A stretch of DNA of 10,685 nucleotides from a virus. Its lineage: Duplodnaviria > Heunggongvirae > Uroviricota > Caudoviricetes. Where the stretch lies: IMG/VR virus record IMGVR_UViG_2690316109_000013, positions 1 to 10,685 of that record; one strand, given 5' to 3'. Position numbers and translations under genes: made by a program. This document shows, piece by piece, positions 401 through 10,685 of this stretch (position 1 is the stretch's first letter; each line of letters starts with the position of its first letter). The notes under the pieces are model-generated. The model saw only the letters and a program-made list of their open reading frames with translations, was not told where the DNA came from and did not search any database.

Positions 401-1064
401 ATTTTATTTAATAGCTCCCGTTCGTGTTTTCTCTTGTTATGACACCAATTTCAAAACAACCTTCAGACGTATTAACGTTTGGTAATAACGTTTCCATTAT
501 CGCGTCCTCAACAATGAATTTTGTGATGCGGTGCCTGGTGCCTCCAGGTGACGTTAACCAGTTAACAATTAACGCCGGATACAGAGAATCCACCCATAAC
601 ACTGTTTTTGGTTTTAACTGTTCCGCGTGCGCTCAGCCGCATTCACCGCATCACAAAATTCACTTTAAAAACGGCGGCAGAGCAGTCACGGAGTAAAACT
701 GATACCGCCAAACGTCACCAGAAAATTGATAACAGAGGGCGTTGCAGCGGGGTTGTCGCTTAAGCGTATGGTCAACCTGACAACCCGGTGTCCTCAACGG
801 GGAAGGAATAACCCCGCCATACTTACCGCCGCGCCATTTCGCGGAGTGCCACAACCGGAAGCGCACGGTCGACGAAAATTTAACGACAGGCTATCTATGA
901 ACCAGCTACCTCGCCGTGCGCTTTCGCGTTATGGTCTGACTTTTCATGGAAATATCCTTTCAGTAAACTGTCAGTGCCGGATGCTCACCCGTGTCCGGCG
1001 CACGCACTCCACCTCACCCGTGGAGAACTCCTTAATTACCAACCTTAGCTTCGTTGGTTAGCTA

Positions 1065-1283
1065 TTAACGCGGGTATGTAATCATTCTGGCAATGCTTAA
1101 TGCCGCTGCTTTTTCCAGCCTGGTGATATCCTGCTCCAGAGCGGACAGATTTTCAGCCTGCTTAGCCCTGGCTTCATTGGCCCATTTCAGATCCTGCGCT
1201 GCATTAATTTTCTGGCGCATCCACTCATAAAGTTCATCATCGGTATAGTCTGGCGAGATGATGACGGGTTCTCGTTTCTGCAT
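1065..1283 (-). CDS. Hypothetical small protein (72 aa), charged and helical-looking; part of the leftward early operon
   Basis: ORF track entry; ATG at 1283..1281 with GAGGA 6 nt upstream on the minus strand; same orientation as the neighbouring small genes. Confidence 0.55.
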   Translation of the reverse strand: MQKREPVIISPDYTDDELYEWMRQKINAAQDLKWANEARAKQAENLSALEQDITRLEKAAALSIARMITYPR

Positions 1284-1312
1284 ACTGATTCCTCGCGGTG
1301 CTGCTTCGCTTA

Positions 1313-1441
1313 TCAGCCGTTAGATTTTGCCGAGCTGGAAAGCGCCTGTTTAAACTCACTGAAGCTGAGAGCTTCTTCGCCTTCGGCAAGGCCTTCGAAG
1401 TATTCTTCGTAAGCCTTTTCCATGATTGTGTCGAAATCCAT
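1313..1441 (-). CDS. Hypothetical small acidic protein (42 aa), hand-translated: MDFDTIMEKAYEEYFEGLAEGEEALSFSEFKQALSSSAKSNG
   Basis: Below the ORF-track size cut-off. ATG at 1441..1439 with AGGTGA upstream. The upstream gene's stop (1445..1443) and this start form TGAtATG on the minus strand, a typical translational-coupling arrangement. An alternative in-frame ATG at 1483 would give 56 aa. Confidence 0.4.
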   Translation of the reverse strand: MDFDTIMEKAYEEYFEGLAEGEEALSFSEFKQALSSSAKSNG

Positions 1442-1442
1442 A

Positions 1443-1679
1443 TCACTCACCTGAGTTTCTTTCCAGCCAGCGACGGGCACCATTTTCGGTTTTAAACGTT
1501 TTGCTTTTGGTATACGTCATCGCGGTGAACGTACCGTCCTGGTTGGGAAACACGCCGTACACCAGAGATTCGTTGTTGCCAAGATCGATAGTATCCATGT
1601 TGACCTCATTTCCCCTTAACGCCGGGGTAGCGGAACAAAAACCTGCTGCATAGTTATTAAAGTTGAACCCTGCCGTCAT
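1443..1679 (-). CDS. Hypothetical small protein (78 aa); first gene of the leftward operon; possibly YdaF/YdaG-like
   Basis: ORF track entry; ATG at 1679..1677 with GAGG about 9 nt upstream; lies just downstream of the pL-like promoter. An internal Met would give a 51-aa product. The Rac ydaF/ydaG assignment is unverified. Confidence 0.5.
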   Translation of the reverse strand: MTAGFNFNNYAAGFCSATPALRGNEVNMDTIDLGNNESLVYGVFPNQDGTFTAMTYTKSKTFKTENGARRWLERNSGE

Positions 1680-1779
1680 GTTCTTACGCCTCGGGCTGGC
1701 TACTTAACCCCTGACCACTGCCTGGTAACTCGAGGTATTGCCCTGTATTGTGTGGGACGGGATGGGTTGGTATGGGAAA

Positions 1780-1808
1780 ACTATAGGAAATGCCTAATTA
1801 CTTGTCAA
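1780..1808 (-). promoter_or_regulatory. pL-like sigma70 promoter driving leftward early transcription
   Basis: On the minus strand: TTGACA (plus 1808..1803), 17-bp spacer, TATAGT (plus 1785..1780). Operator-like GCCTAAT/ATTAGGC half-sites overlap the spacer and flank the -35. Confidence 0.5.
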
Positions 1809-1845
1809 TAGGCTATGCCTAATAATCTGGGCGCGACCTAATAGG
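1791..1845. promoter_or_regulatory. OL-like operator cluster of repeated TTAGGC/GCCTAA half-sites
   Basis: tgcctaatta (1791-1800), near-palindromic TAGGCTATGCCTAAT (1809-1823) and cctaatagg (1837-1845). The 15-mer 1802-1816 is the exact reverse complement of 2453-2467 on the other side of the repressor gene. Confidence 0.5.
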
Positions 1846-1880
1846 TGATGGTTTGTGGGAGAGGTAGTAGGAGTTAACTA

Positions 1881-1902
1881 ACGGGAACTAGGAATTTCCC
1901 GT
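1881..1902 (-). terminator. Hairpin just downstream of the repressor gene; possible weak terminator
   Basis: Inverted repeat acgggaa (1881-1887) and ttcccgt (1896-1902) with an 8-nt loop, immediately after the repressor stop on the minus strand. The following U-tract is poor. Confidence 0.3.
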
Positions 1903-1916
1903 CGGACCATATAAGT

Positions 1917-2393
1917 TTAAGTTCCTGTCTTGGTGATGTTCTGGCTTTTCCGTTTTGATTCTTGATTTTTCAGATAGTTAGCTACCTTCATTTCCATTGC
2001 GGCAATGTAGGCGCGAACGTCATGATCAACCCAACTAGGCTCCGTAGCATTTCCAGATAAGAGGAAAGCCACAATTGCTCTTTTTTCATCAGAGGCGGCT
2101 TGATAAAGGCTGTTTATGTCTAAAAGTTCACTTTTTGTATCTGAAGTGGATGGGGTTGGTATGGGGTATTCGTTAAGCCCCCAATGCTCTGGACCAACCA
2201 CATCAGAAAAGAAACGCCATAGTTCTGGAAGTTTGTCTTTACTTATCGAACCTTTCTTAATCCAGTCATGGATTGATGGTGGTTGGACTTTGAAATGACG
2301 TGCGATTTCCGCCTTTGATTTGACGGCTCCTGATGCAATTTTTTTGTTAATGGCCTGCTCTATCGCTCGGCCTAAGTCTTTACCACTAAGCAT
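1917..2393 (-). CDS. racR: Prophage repressor, RacR-like HTH protein (158 aa)
   Basis: ORF track entry; AGGAGA 10 nt upstream of the ATG at 2393; HTH-like segment KSKAEIARHFKVQPPSIHDWIKKGS; transcribed divergently from a Cro-like gene and flanked by operator repeats. Length and position match my recollection of RacR in the Rac prophage. Confidence 0.65.
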   Translation of the reverse strand: MLSGKDLGRAIEQAINKKIASGAVKSKAEIARHFKVQPPSIHDWIKKGSISKDKLPELWRFFSDVVGPEHWGLNEYPIPTPSTSDTKSELLDINSLYQAASDEKRAIVAFLLSGNATEPSWVDHDVRAYIAAMEMKVANYLKNQESKRKSQNITKTGT

Positions 2394-2421
2394 TGCTTAA
2401 TAGTCTCCTATGCGCATCGCG

Positions 2422-2488
2422 TTAGGCAATCCCTACTCTCGATGTGTTAGGTATAGCCTATTGACAATTGCATTAGGCTAAGCCTAAT
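2422..2488. promoter_or_regulatory. OR-like operator cluster
   Basis: ttaggc (2422-2427), ttaggtatagcctattgacaa (2447-2467) and the 7-3-7 palindrome ATTAGGCtaaGCCTAAT (2472-2488), which overlaps the PR-like spacer and -10. Confidence 0.5.
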
Positions 2489-2490
2489 AT
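2461..2490 (+). promoter_or_regulatory. PR-like sigma70 promoter driving the rightward early operon
   Basis: TTGACA (2461-2466), 18-bp spacer, TAATAT (2485-2490); followed by GGAG (2505-2508) and the ATG at 2518. Confidence 0.55.
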
Positions 2491-2517
2491 TGTTGCGTGT
2501 TTTTTGGAGTTCATTCG

Positions 2518-2841
2518 ATGAAAAAAGATAACTATTCATTCAAACGAGCTTGTGCTGTTGTCGGTGGGCAATCAGCAATGGCTAGGCTTTTAGGTGTATC
2601 TCCTCCAAGCGTAAATCAATGGATCAAAGGTGTACGTCAGTTGCCTGCTGAGAGATGTCCTGCGATTGAACGAGCAACAAAAGGTGGTGTCCTGTGTGAA
2701 GAACTTCGTCCTGATGTTGATTGGACATACTTACGACGCTCGTCATGTTATTCGCAGAATATGTCGATGAAGCAACCAAATGACGAAAACGATCATACCC
2801 GAAGCATCAAGAGGCAAATGATTCATGAAAATCAAACATGA
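2518..2841 (+). CDS. ydaS: Cro/CI-type HTH DNA-binding protein, YdaS-like (107 aa from the ATG at 2518)
   Basis: HTH motif QSAMARLLGVSPPSVNQWIKGVRQ; first gene after the PR-like promoter; GGAG 9 nt upstream. The track ORF begins at 2497, but 2518 has the better RBS. Confidence 0.7.
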   Translation: MKKDNYSFKRACAVVGGQSAMARLLGVSPPSVNQWIKGVRQLPAERCPAIERATKGGVLCEELRPDVDWTYLRRSSCYSQNMSMKQPNDENDHTRSIKRQMIHENQT

Positions 2842-3250
2842 GCACATCCGCATGGCGATGAATGCTTGGGCATACCCTGATGGTGAGAAAGTTCCTGCAG
2901 CTGAAATAGCCCGGACTTATTTCGAACTGGGGATGACGTTCCCTGAACTGTACGACGACAGCCATCCGGAAGCCCTGGCCCGTAATACACAGAAAATTTT
3001 CCGTTGGCTGGATAAAGACACCCCTGATGCTGTTGAAAAAATTCAGGCTCTGTTACCGGCGATCGAAAAGGCAATGCCGCCTCTGCTGGTGGCCCGTATG
3101 CGCAGTCACAGCTCTGAGTATTACCGGGAGATTGTCGAACGGCGGGATCGGCTGGTGAAGGATGTCGACGATTTTGTTGCGTCAGCGGTTGTTTTGTATG
3201 ACCAGATGAATCGCGGCGGCCCGGCAGGGAATGCTGTGGTGATGCACTAA
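2825..3250 (+). CDS. ydaT: YdaT-like protein (141 aa), reported as a phage CII-like regulator
   Basis: ORF track entry; start overlaps the YdaS-like stop by 17 nt; GAGG 10 nt upstream; sequence and length match my recollection of Rac YdaT. Confidence 0.7.
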   Translation: MKIKHEHIRMAMNAWAYPDGEKVPAAEIARTYFELGMTFPELYDDSHPEALARNTQKIFRWLDKDTPDAVEKIQALLPAIEKAMPPLLVARMRSHSSEYYREIVERRDRLVKDVDDFVASAVVLYDQMNRGGPAGNAVVMH

Positions 3251-3272
3251 AAGCACGGTGTTCGGGGGTTTT

Positions 3273-4235
3273 ATGAGCAGCAAGCTTCATGGTCTTGTCT
3301 GGGAAGGGTGCGCCTTCACCGGCATGATCTTATCCAGGGTGGCGGTTATGGCCCGTCTTGCAGACTACAGCAATGACGAGGGTGTGTCATGGCCTGCCAT
3401 TGAAACTATCCGGCGTCAGATCGGTGCAAGAAGTGAATCCACAGTGAAATCGGCTATTGCAGAACTGGCGAAAGAGGGCTGGCTGACGAAGGAAGAGCGT
3501 AAGGTCGGTGGGCGTAATGTAAGCAATATCTATCGGCTTAATGTGGAAAAACTCGAAGCAGCTGCGGCGGCGGCGCGTGAGTCATATAAACCGAAAAGAA
3601 AAATTAGCCCGGCAAAAAATGACCCGTTAACAGTTGACCCGTCAAATATTGACCCCTCAACGGTTGACCCGTCAAATTTTGATGGATCAACTGTTGATAA
3701 AAAACTGCCGATTAGGGGGGCGATGATTGACCCCGATCCGTCAGTATTAAAACCTGAACCGTCAGATAAAAGATCTTCTTGTCCGGACGCTTCGCAACCG
3801 GACCCGCAGACGGCTGAACAGGATTTTTTAACCCGACACCCTGACGCGGTTGTGTTCAGTGCGAAAAAACGCCAGTGGGGAAGTCAGGAAGATTTGGTGT
3901 GCGCACAGTGGATCTGGGGACGAATCGTGAGTCTTTACGAGCAGGCGGCCAGCTATGATGGCGAGATCACTAGACCGAAAGAACCCAACTGGACAGCATG
4001 GGCCAATGACGTTCGCACAATGCGGATGCTGGATGGCAGAACTCACAGACAAATTTGTGAAATGTTTGGGCGTCTCCAGCGGGATTCGTTCTGGGTAAAA
4101 AACATCATGAGTCCGGCAAAACTCCGGGAAAAATGGGATGAACTGGTTATCCGCCTGGGGCGTTCGCCTGCGCAGCGTTGCGTGAATCACATTTCTGAAC
4201 CGGACACTGAAATACCGCCGGGATTCAGGGGGTGA
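3273..4235 (+). CDS. ydaU: Replication initiation protein, lambda O-like / YdaU-like, with N-terminal HTH domain and a repetitive linker
   Basis: ORF track entry 3258-4235 (GTG start); I prefer the in-frame ATG at 3273 (MSSKLHGL). N-terminal winged-helix-like segment; linker reads DPSNIDPSTVDPSNFDGSTVD, encoded by iteron-like DNA repeats; followed by an overlapping DnaC-like gene. Confidence 0.7.
   Translation: MSSKLHGLVWEGCAFTGMILSRVAVMARLADYSNDEGVSWPAIETIRRQIGARSESTVKSAIAELAKEGWLTKEERKVGGRNVSNIYRLNVEKLEAAAAAARESYKPKRKISPAKNDPLTVDPSNIDPSTVDPSNFDGSTVDKKLPIRGAMIDPDPSVLKPEPSDKRSSCPDASQPDPQTAEQDFLTRHPDAVVFSAKKRQWGSQEDLVCAQWIWGRIVSLYEQAASYDGEITRPKEPNWTAWANDVRTMRMLDGRTHRQICEMFGRLQRDSFWVKNIMSPAKLREKWDELVIRLGRSPAQRCVNHISEPDTEIPPGFRG
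3621..3770. repeat. Iteron-like direct and inverted repeats inside the O-like gene; putative prophage replication origin
   Basis: Exact 14-bp copies of ttgacccgtcaaat at 3634-3647 and 3664-3677 (core palindrome TTGACccGTCAA), variant attgacccctcaa (3648-3660), palindrome ttgatggatcaa (3679-3690), further ccgtcag repeats (3725-3767), with A/T-rich DNA alongside. Confidence 0.45.
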
Positions 4236-4241
4236 CGTGTC

Positions 4242-4988
4242 ATGAAAAACATTGCGGCAGTTGGGGTTCTTGAACGTATTCGCAGACTTGCACCACAGGG
4301 GTCGGTTCCACCGTACCGGACGGTGGAGGAGTGGCGGGAATGGCAACTTGCTGAAGGACGAAAACGCAGCGAGGAGATTAACCGCCAGAATCGCCAGTTG
4401 CGGGTGGAAAAAATCCTGAATCGTTCGGGCATCCAGCCTCTGCACAGCAAATGCTCGTTTGCAAATTATCAGGTGCAGAACGACGGGCAAAAATACGCGC
4501 TGAGCCAGGCCAAATCCATAGCTGACGAACTGATGACCGGGTGCACGAATTTTGTGTTCAGCGGTAAAACCGGCACCGGGAAAAATCACCTTGCAGCGGC
4601 GATGGGCAACCGGCTGATGGTGAAGGGGCGCAGCGTGATTATCGTCACCGTGTCTGACGTCATGAGCGTGTTGCATGACAGCTACGACAACGGCAAATCC
4701 GGGGAAAAATTTTTACAGGAGCTTTGCGGGGTTGATTTGCTGGTCCTGGATGAAATAGGCGTTCAGCGGGAGACGAAAAACGAGCAGGTGGTATTGCACC
4801 AGATAATTGATCGCCGGACAGCATCACTGTGCAGTGTCGGGATGTTAACAAACCTGAATCATGCCGCAATGAGTACGCTTCTTGGTGAGAGGATTATGGA
4901 CCGCATGACCATGAACGGTGGTCGATGGGTGACGTTTAACTGGGATAGCTGGCGTCCAAATGTCAGCAATATGAGGGTTGTGAAGTAA
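4242..4988 (+). CDS. ydaV: DnaC-like AAA+ helicase loader, YdaV-like (248 aa)
   Basis: Walker A GKTGTGKNHLAAA (the GKN form that I recall from E. coli DnaC), Walker B LLVLDEIG, and a C-terminal LGERIMDRM...FNWDSWR segment resembling DnaC; AGGGGG RBS 10 nt upstream; positioned directly after the initiator gene. Confidence 0.8.
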   Translation: MKNIAAVGVLERIRRLAPQGSVPPYRTVEEWREWQLAEGRKRSEEINRQNRQLRVEKILNRSGIQPLHSKCSFANYQVQNDGQKYALSQAKSIADELMTGCTNFVFSGKTGTGKNHLAAAMGNRLMVKGRSVIIVTVSDVMSVLHDSYDNGKSGEKFLQELCGVDLLVLDEIGVQRETKNEQVVLHQIIDRRTASLCSVGMLTNLNHAAMSTLLGERIMDRMTMNGGRWVTFNWDSWRPNVSNMRVVK

Positions 4989-5009
4989 TTTTGTCCGGAG
5001 GAAATTTTA

Positions 5010-5780
5010 ATGGAAACCGTATCTGACGCACTGAAAGCACTGAAAAAAGCCTCTTCACATGTGGTGGCAGCTCGCCTTGGAATCACTCGTGAAGAGGCTG
5101 TCAACGAGCTGTGGGAACTCAAAAGAAATGGCGTCGTTGATAAAACTGGTCACACCTGGTTTCTGGCTGGCGAAGGTGAATCCCGGGTAACCGAGGAGCG
5201 GCCAGTAAAATCTGAAGCACAGGATATGCTGACCAGGGAGGTCGAACAAAAAGTTACCGCAGACATGATGATTGAGTTTATCGGTCAGGATGGGGCTAAA
5301 ACGTGTGAGGAACTGGCGGGTAAGTTCGGTGTCAGTACTCGCAAGGTTGCTTCCACGCTGGCGGTGGTAACCGCAACGGGGCGGCTGGCACGCGTTAATC
5401 AGAACGGTAAATTTCGTTACTGCATGCCGGGCGATAATTTACCAGCAGAGCCGAAAGCCGCGCTGGTAACGGAAAGTGATGGTAAGGCCTTTCCTCAGCC
5501 AGCAGGTGCTGCGTTACCAGTCCGGGAAGCCGCAACACAGGAAGAAATTAAAACAGAAACTGTGGCGGACATTGTGCAGCCGTTGCCATCGTTTACCGAA
5601 ACGCAAGCAGATGAGCTGATTTTTCCGTCCCTTCGCAGGGCAAACCTGGCGCTGCGCAGGGCGAAAAGTGATGTTCAGAAGTGGGAGCGAGTCTGCGCCG
5701 CGCTGCGGGAGCTGAACAAGCACCGGGATATTGTTCGACAGATTACTGATTCTTCCCGCCGTGTTGTATCGGAAAAGTGA
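5010..5780 (+). CDS. Hypothetical protein (256 aa) with two copies of a winged-helix-like module
   Basis: ORF track entry; GGAGG 9 nt upstream; two segments of about 55 aa (residues 1-57 and about 85-140) share the pattern G..T..ELA...G.S...V...L..L...G.V. Confidence 0.55.
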   Translation: METVSDALKALKKASSHVVAARLGITREEAVNELWELKRNGVVDKTGHTWFLAGEGESRVTEERPVKSEAQDMLTREVEQKVTADMMIEFIGQDGAKTCEELAGKFGVSTRKVASTLAVVTATGRLARVNQNGKFRYCMPGDNLPAEPKAALVTESDGKAFPQPAGAALPVREAATQEEIKTETVADIVQPLPSFTETQADELIFPSLRRANLALRRAKSDVQKWERVCAALRELNKHRDIVRQITDSSRRVVSEK

Positions 5781-5795
5781 TTGCCGAAGGCGCTT

Positions 5796-6221
5796 ATGGA
5801 AAAAGTATTTACACAAGAAGAGCGGGAAAAAATTAAAGGGCAGGTTGTTGAGCTAGTACGCCGGAGTGGGCGCGAGACGTTACGGCAACTGGAAGCCAAG
5901 ACAGGTGCGACAAGATATCTGATGAGCGTTCTTGCCAGAGAGCTGGTTGCCAGTGGTGATGTATATCACTCTGGCTATGGGTTGTTCCCGTCAGAACAGG
6001 CTCGTAAGGACTGGCAAAACGCCCGCAAAAAACTCTCGAGTGCAAAGGTGAAGAAACCTGTTGTGGTTGATCCGGGCCTTATCTGGACATTACCCGACGG
6101 AGAAATACGCCGCTACGACAGGCGTATGAACATAATCTGTCGCGAGTGCCGGAAGAGCGAAGCTATGCAGCGTGTACTGGCATTTTATCAAGGAAATGTT
6201 AGGTATTTTAGACGTTACTAG
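5796..6221 (+). CDS. Ren-like protein (141 aa from the ATG at 5796); third copy of the winged-helix-like module plus a Ren-like C-terminus
   Basis: ORF track entry starts at a TTG at 5781; the in-frame ATG at 5796 has GAAGG upstream. C-terminus CRECRKSEAMQRVLAFYQG resembles my recollection of the lambda Ren C-terminus (CRQSAAMKRVLAVYG). Occupies the position where ren sits in lambda. Confidence 0.5.
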   Translation: MEKVFTQEEREKIKGQVVELVRRSGRETLRQLEAKTGATRYLMSVLARELVASGDVYHSGYGLFPSEQARKDWQNARKKLSSAKVKKPVVVDPGLIWTLPDGEIRRYDRRMNIICRECRKSEAMQRVLAFYQGNVRYFRRY

Positions 6222-6374
6222 ATTAAAGAGCATTAGTTCAGATGTGAATTGACATTTTCATGGCGCAGGGTAGAGCCAGCGTGGTTGTCCGCTTTGCGTC
6301 AAAACCAGATATTACCAGATTTAGACATATATTCCCGATAGCCCTGCTCTGATGCTACACTCTGTGCTATTTTC

Positions 6375-7021
6375 ATGACCCCAATAAAAATATTTATGAC
6401 TATTGCTGATTTCAAACGGCCTAAATTGGAGCTTCCAAACGGGGCAAACAAACTACTACTGCACTCTTGCTGTGCTCCATGTTCCGGTGAAGTGATGGAG
6501 GCGCTTCAGGCCTCGGGAATCGACTACACCATCTTTTTCTACAACCCGAACATTCATCCTCAGAAAGAGTATTTAATTCGTAAGGATGAAAATATTCGCT
6601 TTGCTGAACAACACGGCGTGCCGTTTATCGATGCTGATTACGACACCGACAACTGGTTTGAACGTGCCAAAGGAATGGAATGGGAGCCTGAGAGGGGGAT
6701 CCGTTGTACCATGTGTTTTGACATGCGTTTTGAGCGGACAGCGTTGTACGCTGCTGAAAATGGTTTCAGTGTGATCAGATTAACGAGTGTGGGCGGCGAG
6801 CTGTTGCGCATTATCCGGGTATGGTGTACTGGGATTATAACTGGCGCAAGCAGGGCGGCTCGTCCCGTATGATTGAAATCAGCAAGCGCGAAAAATTCTA
6901 TCAGCAGGAATATTGTGGCTGTGTGTATTCTCTGCGCGATACCAATCTACACCGCAAATCTCAGGGACGCCCTCTTATCAAAATTGGCCAACTCCACTAC
7001 GGAAAAGAAGAGAAGGAGTGA
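6375..7021 (+). pseudogene. DUF208 / QueH-like (B12-independent epoxyqueuosine reductase family) gene split between two reading frames
   Basis: N-terminal part in the 6375-6872 ORF carries [11 protein letters not shown] and CTMC motifs; the C-terminal part, with [11 protein letters not shown] and EYCGCVYS, is in the 6821-7021 ORF in a different frame. The second frame is open from 6758, so the shift lies between about 6758 and 6872. No RBS is evident before either candidate ATG (6375 or 6396). Confidence 0.55.
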
Positions 7022-7091
7022 TTTTATGGATCACCTTTCTGATTGATTTCATATTGGCGAGGTGACGTGAGTTAAGTAGAATTGCTGCGGG

Positions 7092-7116
7092 TGCCTGAGG
7101 CTGTCTGCCTCAGGCA
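7092..7116 (+). other. Perfect 9-bp stem-loop in the leader upstream of the methyltransferase gene
   Basis: tgcctgagg (7092-7100), 7-nt loop, cctcaggca (7108-7116); no adjacent T-tract on either strand. A weak promoter candidate TTGGCG-17-TAGAAT (7054-7082) lies just upstream. Confidence 0.3.
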
Positions 7117-7199
7117 TGAACACCAAAAGGCAGATAGAGAAAGCCCCAGTTAACATTACGCGTCCTGTAAGACGCTCAACATTAATCTGAGGCATATGG

Positions 7200-8324
7200 A
7201 TGCGGATGAAAGAATTAAATAAATTCAGAGTGATAGACCTCTTTTGTGGGGCAGGTGGATTATCTTATGGTTTTCTTCATGGAGAGATGTCTGACTACTT
7301 TGAAAGTATCCTTGCTATTGATAATAATGCTGCAGCTATAAATACCTACAATGCCAATTTTGGTTTGCATGGAGTTCAGGCAAATATTGAGGAGTGGGCA
7401 TCCAGCAATACTGTTCCTGAGGCTGATGTGGTCATAGGTGGCCCCCCGTGTCAGGGATTCAGTTTATTGAATAAGAATCGTTATGGTGATCACCGAAGAG
7501 CATTGTGGGAGCCTTATATGGATGTCATTGAGCGTTCAAGGGCTTGTATGTTCGTCATGGAAAATGTCCCCGGATTGCTGATAAGCGATGAGTTTGCGGA
7601 CATTACGTTTAGAGCGAAATCCATGGGCTTTATTCTGCTTAATCCAATGGTGTTGAATACTGCTGACTATGGAGTACCTCAGACAAGAAAACGAACGATA
7701 GCAATCGGTATCAAACGAGAACTCTTCGATGTGCATAGTATTCCGGCGTTCCCGCCAGCACCAACGCATCGTTCCCCTGATAAGGATGTCGCTTTGCCTG
7801 AATGGGTCTGTACGCGTGATGCAATTGGTGACTTACCTGCTCCTGTTGGAACTGATATTCGTAATGAACTTCCTCCGCTGAACTTACATTTTGGGCGTAA
7901 TCCCACACCTGTTTCTCTGGAGCGATATAAAGCGGTTCCACCAGGAGGTAACCGTTTCGATTTACAGAAAAAAAGACCTGATATAACCCCGGCGTGCTGG
8001 CTAAAAAAGAAATCTGGAGGGACCGATTTGTTTGGACGTCTGTGGTGGGACAGACCTTCAGTAACGATTCGTACTGAGTTTTTCAAACCGGAGAAAGGGC
8101 GATATTTACATCCGGAAGAGGATCGGCCAATAACTCATCGTGAGGCAGCGAGATTAATGTCTTTTCCTGATAATTTCATTTTTACCGGTTCAAAAACTGA
8201 GATTGCAAAGCAGATCGGGAATGCTGTTCCACCGCTATTTGCGGCAAAAATCGCACAATATGTGTATGGAGTTTTGCAGGGACGGTATAAGAATAACATC
8301 AGTAAGAATAGTCAAGCAGCCTGA
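7200..8324 (+). CDS. DNA (cytosine-5)-methyltransferase, type II R-M modification subunit (374 aa)
   Basis: C5-MTase motifs: FCGAGGLSYGF (motif I, AdoMet binding), GGPPCQGFS (motif IV, catalytic Cys), VMENVPGL (ENV), QTRKR and C-terminal GNAVPP. TGAGG RBS 7 nt upstream of the ATG at 7200. Confidence 0.9.
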   Translation: MRMKELNKFRVIDLFCGAGGLSYGFLHGEMSDYFESILAIDNNAAAINTYNANFGLHGVQANIEEWASSNTVPEADVVIGGPPCQGFSLLNKNRYGDHRRALWEPYMDVIERSRACMFVMENVPGLLISDEFADITFRAKSMGFILLNPMVLNTADYGVPQTRKRTIAIGIKRELFDVHSIPAFPPAPTHRSPDKDVALPEWVCTRDAIGDLPAPVGTDIRNELPPLNLHFGRNPTPVSLERYKAVPPGGNRFDLQKKRPDITPACWLKKKSGGTDLFGRLWWDRPSVTIRTEFFKPEKGRYLHPEEDRPITHREAARLMSFPDNFIFTGSKTEIAKQIGNAVPPLFAAKIAQYVYGVLQGRYKNNISKNSQAA

Positions 8325-8337
8325 AGGAAATCCAGAA

Positions 8338-9216
8338 ATGAATGGAGATTTGGTTGACAGCATAGTTGGTTTTGCTGAAGCCAGAAAGGAGTTTCATGCC
8401 CAATTGTTACTGAATACGCTCACAATTAATACTGCCGGAGTTGTTAGTAACGCAGATAGCAGTAACAAAAACAGTAAAGCTATAGCAAGAGAAATTGCTC
8501 GCTTCTTGCAGGCTGAAACGATTGGTGAACGTGTTGCAGGGCAAACATCTGGTAATCAGTTTGAGAGTATCTGCGCAGAGTTTATAGAAAAAACCTTTTT
8601 TAAACTCAGCCACTTACGCCCTGGAAAATGGAATGTACATCAGGTTTCTGGTAGAAACAGATTAGAGATAGCTAAATATGAACAATATGCCCATCTTATA
8701 GCATTGGATAGTGCTGCAAAAAGTAATCCTCAGCTAGCTGCTGCACTGGGGAGTGATTATACGATTTCACCAGATATTATTGTTGAAAGAGAACCTGAAT
8801 GTGATCAAGTTATCAACAGTCCTGAATTACTGGTGGATGATTCTGTTACCCGCATGTCAGCTCTCAGGAGTTCGAATGGTGGGAAACCAATATTACACGC
8901 AAGTATTTCCTGCAAATGGACAATAAGAAGCGACCGGGCCCAGAATGCTCGTTCTGAGGCATTAAATCTTATTCGCAACCGTAAGGGAAATCTCCCTCAT
9001 GTAATGGTTGTTACTGCTGAGCCTACTCCAAGTCGTCTGGCGTCTATTGCTCTTGGTACTGGTGATATAGATTGCGTGTATCATTTTGCGCTTTATGAAC
9101 TTATATCAGCAGTTGAAATACTGGGGCTCAGCGATGCAGCTGACATGCTTTCCGTGATGGTTAATGGTAAAAGATTAAAGGATATTTCTGATCTTCCCTT
9201 GGATCTTGCAGTCTGA
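8338..9216 (+). CDS. Type II restriction endonuclease, NgoMIV/Cfr10I family (292 aa); predicted CCGG-core target, probably GCCGGC
   Basis: ATG at 8338 lies 13 nt after the MTase stop, with AAGGA 9 nt upstream. Catalytic-motif candidates SPDIIV (D146), SCK (K193) and ARSE (E207) have the D-to-K (47) and K-to-E (14) spacing that I recall for NgoMIV D140/K187/E201. The track ORF 8203-9216 extends upstream into the MTase gene in another frame. Confidence 0.8.
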   Translation: MNGDLVDSIVGFAEARKEFHAQLLLNTLTINTAGVVSNADSSNKNSKAIAREIARFLQAETIGERVAGQTSGNQFESICAEFIEKTFFKLSHLRPGKWNVHQVSGRNRLEIAKYEQYAHLIALDSAAKSNPQLAAALGSDYTISPDIIVEREPECDQVINSPELLVDDSVTRMSALRSSNGGKPILHASISCKWTIRSDRAQNARSEALNLIRNRKGNLPHVMVVTAEPTPSRLASIALGTGDIDCVYHFALYELISAVEILGLSDAADMLSVMVNGKRLKDISDLPLDLAV

Positions 9217-9288
9217 CATCTCTACGTAAATAGAGTCTGTCATATTTTAACTGTGATGGCACGTCATTGACTTCAGTACATTTTTACT

Positions 9289-9316
9289 AACCCGCTTCGC
9301 GGGTTTTGTTTTTTCC
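9289..9316 (+). terminator. Rho-independent terminator closing the R-M cassette
   Basis: aacccgc-ttc-gcgggtt GC-rich stem followed by the T-tract ttgtttttt (9304-9316); located about 70 bp after the endonuclease stop. Confidence 0.7.
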
Positions 9317-9386
9317 TGGCATTCTGGTTTACAATCCACACGCCAGCCTGAACAACTGGCACCTGCTGCGCCAGCAGAGACAACCG

Positions 9387-9659
9387 ATGGCGCACAATAC
9401 CAAACACCACAATTCTGATGCCGACCCTGCCAGCAGACACGGACGGCGCTCTCACGCATTCAAATATGACTGGTACCAGCATGACCAATGCACTGAAGAA
9501 CAGGCCGAGTGGCTGATTCAGAATTACCGCAGACGTGGATACCAGTTTCAGAAAGGCCTCAGTCCTGACTTCCGACACTGGATAATTTCCGTCAGGCTCC
9601 CTTATTCCGAACGCCCGCCGCGTCCGTCCCGCACATATCAGCAACGCATCTGGAGGTAA
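9387..9659 (+). CDS. Hypothetical small basic protein (91 aa from the ATG at 9387)
   Basis: The track ORF 9306-9659 begins at a TTG inside the terminator T-tract; the in-frame ATG at 9387 is more plausible but has a weak RBS. Product not recognised. Confidence 0.3.
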   Translation: MAHNTKHHNSDADPASRHGRRSHAFKYDWYQHDQCTEEQAEWLIQNYRRRGYQFQKGLSPDFRHWIISVRLPYSERPPRPSRTYQQRIWR

Positions 9660-9732
9660 CGTGCGGGTATTACTTCGACCTGTTCTGGTACCGGAACTCA
9701 GTCTGGTTATCGTTAAGCCAGGCCGTGAATCA

Positions 9733-10685
9733 ATGTCAGTATTCCATAACGGCAGAATATTGGTGGAACCGGAACCCAAAAACATGCGCAGTCTTCCGTC
9801 CGGCGTCGTTGCAGCCGTTAGCCAGCCGTTGGCTGAGGATAAAACATTACTACCATTTTTCAGCGATGAGCGGGTAATTCGTGCAGCAGGTGGTGCAGGT
9901 GCACTGTCTGACTGGTTATTACGTCACGTGAAATCCTGCCAGTGGCCACACGGCGATTATCATCACAGCGAAACAGTCATTCACCGTTACGGTACCGGCG
10001 CGATGGTGTTGTGCTGGCACTGTGACAACCAGCTGCGCGACCAGACATCAGAATCACTCGATCAACTTGCTCAGCAGAATCTGGTTGCCTGGATGATTGA
10101 CGTCATCCGTCACGCAATAAGCGGCACGCAGGAGAGGGAGTTATCGCTGGCCGAATTATCCTGGTGGGCGGCCTGCAATCAGGTGGTGGATGCACTACCT
10201 GAGGCAGTAGCGCGTCGTTCTCTGGGATTACCGGCGGAAAAAATCCGCTCCGTATACCGTGAAAGCGACATCATACCGGGAGAACAGACCGCCACCAGCA
10301 TACTGAAGCAGCGCACAAAAAATATTGCGCTACCGCCTCACACCCACCAGCAACAGAACCCACCACAGGAAAAGACGGTGGTCAGCATTGCCGTTGATCC
10401 GGAGTCTCCGGAATCCTTCATGAAACGACCTAAACGTCGCCGCTGGGTAAATGAGAAATACACACGCTGGGTAAAGACACAGCCGTGTGCGTGTTGTGGT
10501 AAGCCAGCGGACGATCCTCATCATCTGATTGGTCATGGTCAGGGTGGAATGGGAACAAAATCCCACGATATTTTCACGCTACCGCTGTGTCGGGAGCATC
10601 ACAACGAGCTTCATGCGGATCCGCTGGCGTTCGAAGAAAAGCATGGTTCCCAGGTTGATTTAATTTTTCGTTTTCTTGATCACGC
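9733..10685 (+). CDS. DUF968 / YdfU-like nin-region protein with C-terminal HNH-like Cys/His motif; 3' end lies beyond the window
   Basis: Hand-translated open frame, absent from the ORF track because no stop is reached. ATG at 9733 (MSVFHNGRIL...), GTG alternative at 9661. C-terminal CACCGKPADDPHHLIGHGQGGMGTKSHDIFTLPLCREHHNELH resembles a zinc-binding HNH nuclease motif. Confidence 0.65.
   Translation, partial: MSVFHNGRILVEPEPKNMRSLPSGVVAAVSQPLAEDKTLLPFFSDERVIRAAGGAGALSDWLLRHVKSCQWPHGDYHHSETVIHRYGTGAMVLCWHCDNQLRDQTSESLDQLAQQNLVAWMIDVIRHAISGTQERELSLAELSWWAACNQVVDALPEAVARRSLGLPAEKIRSVYRESDIIPGEQTATSILKQRTKNIALPPHTHQQQNPPQEKTVVSIAVDPESPESFMKRPKRRRWVNEKYTRWVKTQPCACCGKPADDPHHLIGHGQGGMGTKSHDIFTLPLCREHHNELHADPLAFEEKHGSQVDLIFRFLDH

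Follow-up and report, generated by a model that had tools for sequence, protein, structure and literature searches.

Intact QueH is an iron-sulfur enzyme that converts epoxyqueuosine to queuosine at position 34 of tRNA Asp, Asn, His, and Tyr without cobalamin, and its conserved cysteines reportedly hold a [4Fe-4S] cluster together with an adjacent iron. Escherichia coli, which has no de novo cobalamin synthesis, carries out the same reaction with QueG (YjeS), a cobalamin-dependent enzyme that is unrelated to QueH in fold and cofactor and whose chromosomal gene lies outside the DNA analyzed here. QueH has been described as a non-orthologous replacement of QueG in the last step of the queuosine pathway (PMC5372724); QueH uses iron and QueG uses cobalamin (PMC9508795, PMC13443448), and in Staphylococcus aureus the two are redundant enzymes with different cofactors (PMC13443448). 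It is well established that E. coli needs a cobamide for oQ reduction (Frey et al., 1988, as cited by PMC5372724).

The locus considered here lies in a window of 10,685 nucleotides (the whole stretch of viral DNA that was analyzed; IMG/VR record IMGVR_UViG_2690316109_000013). The original prediction, made from the letters alone, had placed a QueH-like (DUF208) gene in a prophage at this locus, with the cysteine motifs CCAPC, CxxC, and YCGC distributed over two open reading frames (ORFs) in different frames, and all of this was borne out. Comparison with annotated relatives identifies the window as the early part of an E. coli lambdoid prophage of the Qin/Rac-like type. Both ORFs are on the plus strand, at 6375-6872 (165 aa) and 6821-7021 (66 aa), and both match the Pfam QueH family PF02677 well above its gathering score of 23.5 bits: the first ORF reaches 137.4 bits on positions 1-108 of the 175-position profile, and the second reaches 43.9 bits on positions 138-174. 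Neither ORF matches positions 109-137, and nowhere in the window copy is the whole domain encoded in a single frame. The motifs CCAPC and CTMC (the predicted CxxC) are in the first ORF and YCGC is in the second. Each of the three is at least 97.5% conserved among the QueH proteins translated from 80 species-level genomes (Enterobacterales, Pseudomonas, Stenotrophomonas, Sphingomonas, Neisseriaceae, and others).

Compared with the QueH family at large, the window gene is interrupted, and it is borne by a prophage rather than by a chromosome. It has the CCxP-, CxxC, and CGC cysteine motifs in common with QueH of Thermotoga maritima (7LC5); the T. maritima protein reads CCAPD where the window gene reads CCAPC. 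The intact form of the gene is 666 bp long and encodes a protein of 221 aa (WP_000150294.1, RefSeq name “epoxyqueuosine reductase QueH”), residues 20-196 of which align with residues 4-178 of 7LC5_A at an E value of 7.6e-22. No NCBIfam model matched this 221-aa protein, and in PHROGs the phage family is phrog_3217, annotated as “unknown function.” In E. coli lambdoid prophages, the WP_000150294.1 gene occupies the same place as the window gene, downstream of a DUF977 gene in the early-right region.

Compared with the WP_000150294.1 allele, 40 bp (codons 128-140 and one further nucleotide) are missing from the window, and position 6779 is A in place of G; outside the deletion, that one base is the only departure from 100% identity. 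The disruption had been foreseen as a change of frame, to be located by alignment to QueH relatives. The frames do differ; the lesion itself is larger than a single-base slip, a 40-bp deletion that removes a conserved block. Alignment to two close intact prophage loci places the junction at 6776/6777 on the plus strand, with codons S128 to Q140 and 1 nt missing, and every IMG/VR locus that we inspected breaks at the same point when aligned to the window gene. The sequence of the intact allele is ...GTGAT CAGTAGTTCACTGGGCATTTCACGCTGGAAAAATATGCAG CAGGTTAACG..., that of the window is ...GTGATCAGATTAACG..., so that the deletion runs between two CAG triplets; this CAG microhomology leaves its placement ambiguous over those 3 nt. 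The junction sequence in the window is GATCAGATTAACG. At 6779, the A (V142I in the intact frame; G in the nearest relatives, by alignment) is probably an ordinary polymorphism, since one intact allele also has it.

What is left of the gene can be read as three segments, all on the plus strand. The 5' part (6396..6776) encodes codons 1-127 in the native frame, including CCAPC and CTMC; it covers Pfam positions 1-108 and is identical to the WP_000150294.1 allele there. An out-of-frame tail follows at 6777..6872, in which translation, when set against the intact protein, gives 31 codons (RLTSVGG...RPV) and then a stop. Translation from the ATG at 6396 would thus yield 127 native residues and 31 out-of-frame ones. 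The 3' part (6821..7021), which includes YCGC, starts at Met156, an internal residue, and ends at the native stop; it covers Pfam positions 138-174 and is identical to residues 156-221 of the intact protein. This second ORF has no translation signals of its own and lacks both a Shine-Dalgarno (SD) sequence and a promoter. The lost codons 128-140 encode SSSLGISRWKNMQ, and the one further base that is lost shifts the frame. Residues 142-155 are still encoded, yet in neither ORF, and residues 128-155 are therefore absent from both products. Across the 80 species-level genomes (QueH 74-100% identical to the prophage protein), the conservation of the deleted stretch is 0.91 against a protein mean of 0.83, and the LGISRWK block within it is at least 97.5% conserved. 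This central block, S-x-L-G-I-S-R-W-K in this subfamily, aligns with STTLLASPRKN of T. maritima 7LC5.

The intact gene is common and well conserved. A search with the queH coding sequence finds it in 995 of the 5,426 complete E. coli genomes (18%). Forty matches sampled across the ranking are all annotated “epoxyqueuosine reductase QueH,” and all are two-piece matches about 40 bases longer than the query covered; 39 of these cover the full gene over 655-669 bp, and the one short match, the weakest of the 40, proved to be an intact, full-length, 669-bp divergent allele. Carriers of the prophage gene include O157:H7, O104:H4, and ST131 strains, 189 viral contigs of IMG/VR encode relatives of the product, and an intact copy is present in HannyBb, a deposited phage genome. 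Intact orthologues in related prophages, suggested earlier as a check, are thus plentiful, with the 221-aa allele at the same position in 995 of the 5,426 genomes. The slot downstream of DUF977 is fixed, in 80 of 80 IMG/VR loci as well as in prophages with differing immunity regions. Alleles that are 91-97% identical in DNA differ at very few amino acids, and dN/dS between them is 0.03-0.04, a measure by which the prophage gene is under strong purifying selection. Together, the 18% prevalence, the fixed slot in otherwise mosaic prophages, and a dN/dS of about 0.035 indicate that the function of the protein is generally maintained; the copy in the window would be a recent casualty. What the window holds is therefore ordinary, a broken copy of a gene that is already annotated.

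Where might a prophage have acquired this gene? Full-length chromosomal QueH proteins of Enterobacter, Kluyvera, Scandinavium, Serratia, and other Proteobacteria show 74-92% amino acid identity; those of Enterobacter, Kluyvera, and Scandinavium are 88-92% identical to the intact prophage protein, and those of Enterobacter and Serratia are 81-90% identical to it. In the Enterobacter locus that we examined, the neighbors identifiable by Pfam are chromosomal (a DeoR regulator and a GH28 hydrolase), and in the Serratia locus they are TonB, an MFS transporter, and one transposase-type integrase-core ORF, none of them genes of the prophage in the window. Among the species loci compared, only that of E. 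albertii shares the prophage neighbors. Since the neighbors are chromosomal and yet the proteins are 81-90% identical, the data fit a scenario in which a lambdoid phage captured queH from an enterobacterial chromosome. In the Serratia proteamaculans locus (4891-5634), the chromosomal queH is directly upstream of a tonB-like gene, which may hint at a link to iron.

The start of the gene and its leader bear on one reading that did not survive. The ATG at 6396 is the real queH start: it is the RefSeq start, and it and the codons that follow are conserved; the upstream ATG at 6375 is missing from the divergent O7:H15 prophage allele and from the Enterobacter orthologue. Neither the intact prophage alleles nor the orthologues on the chromosomes of Enterobacter, Kluyvera, and Scandinavium have an SD sequence in their leaders. 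The original prediction had taken the missing ribosome binding site as a sign of decay; because intact alleles under purifying selection and chromosomal orthologues are equally SD-less, we regard it instead as an ancestral trait.

Upstream of this leader is a putative extended -10 element, TGcTACACT (TGCTACACT), at 6353..6361 on the plus strand, about 35 nt from the queH start, which was recognized by its conservation. ATGCTACAC is invariant when four prophage alleles, an allele from IMG/VR, and the chromosomal orthologue of Enterobacter are aligned, even though their flanks cannot otherwise be aligned. Among genome loci that have such an element, the eight closest read TGCTAC[A/C][A/C]T at positions -39 to -44 relative to the start codon, and the closest chromosomal queH loci have TGCTACA(C/A)T about 40 nt upstream together with an SD-less leader, as the prophage does. 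The element is found in the closest Enterobacteriaceae and not in distant relatives. A consensus promoter scan did not report it and found no full promoter, because there is no good -35. Based on conservation that is limited to the closest Enterobacteriaceae and that sits at promoter distance, we infer that 6353-6361 is an extended -10 promoter traveling with queH. A preQ1 riboswitch had also been suggested by the conserved upstream GCUACAC; this candidate was rejected, as no Rfam riboswitch matched in 6150-7260 even at E values up to 10.

In total, the observations above make it likely that this region is a recently inactivated copy, or pseudogene, of a prophage-borne queH. We propose that codons 128-140 were lost, and the frame shifted, through a deletion between two short CAG repeats, that the last 66 codons with the C-terminal Cys-Gly-Cys motif would be left as an orphan ORF without start signals, and that the host of this prophage would depend on its chromosomal QueG. 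The inactivation would be recent because only 5 substitutions over 10.2 kb separate the window from the nearest prophage. That the gene as written could not give a full-length protein had been anticipated, and the 40-bp deletion and frameshift relative to intact alleles account for it. With the conserved cysteines split over two pieces and the conserved block gone, the window copy would be expected to yield no active enzyme.

Could the two ORFs nevertheless provide QueH activity between them? Every conserved cysteine motif is still encoded across the pair, so one might imagine a split enzyme, in which the ORFs are expressed separately and their products reassemble. We consider this exceedingly improbable: residues 128-155, with the LGISRWK block, are in neither product, the second ORF has neither SD nor promoter and opens with an internal Met, and no split arrangement occurs in the 995 E. 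coli genomes with queH, in the 80 loci from IMG/VR, or in the 80 species-level loci. Nor do we give any real credence to programmed ribosomal frameshifting as a way back to the full-length protein, for which the overlap of the two frames at 6821-6872 is the only support. The change of frame stems from a deletion that no relative has, so there is no conserved recoding site, and even a perfect frameshifting event would leave the protein short of 13 residues, most of them conserved.

A different question is whether the deletion is in the genome at all, or whether it arose in sequencing, assembly, or editing and the true genome has an intact, functional queH. The junction is unique among all sequences searched. 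A 50-mer across it has no full match in the 5,426 complete E. coli genomes, where only its left 28 bases match; an exact 33-mer is absent from the GTDB species representatives and from the contigs of 241 million metagenome records; and the junction is absent from the compared relatives' loci, the 80 IMG/VR loci among them. Neither of the two possible truncated products has an exact protein on record. The 66-aa ORF is on record, and the six places listed for it, from 24 contigs read, are contigs that start inside queH or a scaffold junction with an N; these hits are contig-edge effects, and the deletion is in none of the six. Every E. coli copy that we inspected individually is full length. Beyond queH, the window carries a second private deletion, of 34 bp, at 439/440 in dicB (minus strand; ORF 408-602), 6.3 kb from the queH lesion. 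It removes ATGGCATCTTCAGTAAATACAGGGTTACTGATAG (positions 3434-3467 of the nearest-relative locus), with a frameshift after METLLPNVNTSEGCFEIGV, and a 50-mer across its junction is absent from all 5,426 complete genomes of E. coli. Window positions 440-10685 (10.2 kb) are separated from the nearest relative, NZ_CM136167.1, by the 5 substitutions and are otherwise 99.95% identical to it. Two private out-of-frame lesions within 10.7 kb of such DNA are unusual; they leave room for an assembly or sequence artifact and call for read-level confirmation. We nonetheless judge an artifact unlikely. Deletions of 34-40 bp are not typical base-calling or polishing errors, the queH deletion lies between CAG microhomologies like genuine deletions made by replication slippage or end joining, prophage cargo genes do decay, and the loss of a toxic dicB is a plausible selected event. 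An origin of the deletions in escape from CRISPR was also considered and dropped, as their sizes and flanks, judged by eye, lent it no clear support.

If the window copy is a pseudogene, what do the intact copies do? We found no paper on B12-independent queuosine via a prophage queH, and no experimental work on the phage family. Because QueH uses iron, and QueG and oQ reduction in E. coli need cobalamin or a cobamide, the idea in the original prediction that an intact prophage queH would make the last queuosine step independent of B12 is plausible; it could apply to the intact copies and not to the copy in the window. More specifically, we speculate that the intact copies are a case of lysogenic conversion, in which a chromosomal queH captured from a neighboring enterobacterial lineage, native promoter included, would give an E. 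coli lysogen B12-free queuosine. This is a tentative proposal, to which we assign slightly less than an even chance, and both the promoter and the physiological role of the intact copies are what we infer for them. If prophage queH is expressed in lysogens, the last queuosine step would be uncoupled from B12 supply; if the lysogenic-conversion reading is true, the window would carry that trait in a naturally inactivated form. Taken alone, the window matters little, being a single strain's broken copy of a gene already named by RefSeq. The wider point is a modest one, namely, that roughly a fifth of the complete E. coli genomes have a well-conserved prophage queH besides the chromosomal, B12-dependent queG. 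The natural Δ40 allele and its near-identical intact relatives also offer a convenient comparison.

The surroundings of the gene are those of a lambdoid early region. By annotated relatives, the order begins with the end of an exonuclease gene, dicB, the DicF RNA, ydfC, ydfB, and a DUF1391 gene, followed by a RacR-like repressor (1917-2393, minus strand), a Cro-like regulator, and YdaT, and then by a replisome organizer, a DnaC-like ATPase, a DUF1627 gene, a DUF977 gene, and queH; downstream come a DNA cytosine methyltransferase, an NgoMIV-family endonuclease, a small hypothetical gene, and a DUF968 gene that runs off the window end. The DicF antisense RNA (672-723, minus strand; Rfam RF00039, 72.5 bits) is to be expected in a Qin-like prophage. 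The original prediction had found no sign of a joint function between queH and the adjacent restriction-modification (R-M) pair; the two are independent modules, as the counts and the cassette boundaries show. The type II pair, a Dcm-like methyltransferase and the NgoMIV-family endonuclease, is present in 60 of the 5,426 complete E. coli genomes, versus 995 for queH, and in 20 of the 80 IMG/VR queH loci; it forms a separate cassette of 2.1 kb (7194-9287) that begins 172 bp past the queH stop. Comparison with an ST131 prophage shows that the cassette stands in place of 287 bp holding hokD, and in other prophages hokD or a DUF1971 gene follows queH.

One addiction-type module has thus been swapped for another, the R-M pair for the hokD toxin gene. 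A remnant of a hok/sok leader is still recognizable at 7089-7269 on the plus strand (Rfam RF01794, sok antitoxin/hok leader; 61 bits against a gathering score of 59 bits). The 3' end of this match overlaps the start of the methyltransferase gene, and a hairpin at 7094-7117, GCCTGAGGC-n6-GCCTCAGGC, is the first stem of the RF01794 element. Related prophages also carry three tRNA genes, tRNA-Ile, tRNA-Arg, and tRNA-Arg, downstream of the equivalent of the window (16382-16631 of the nearest-relative locus), none of which is a queuosine-modified tRNA.
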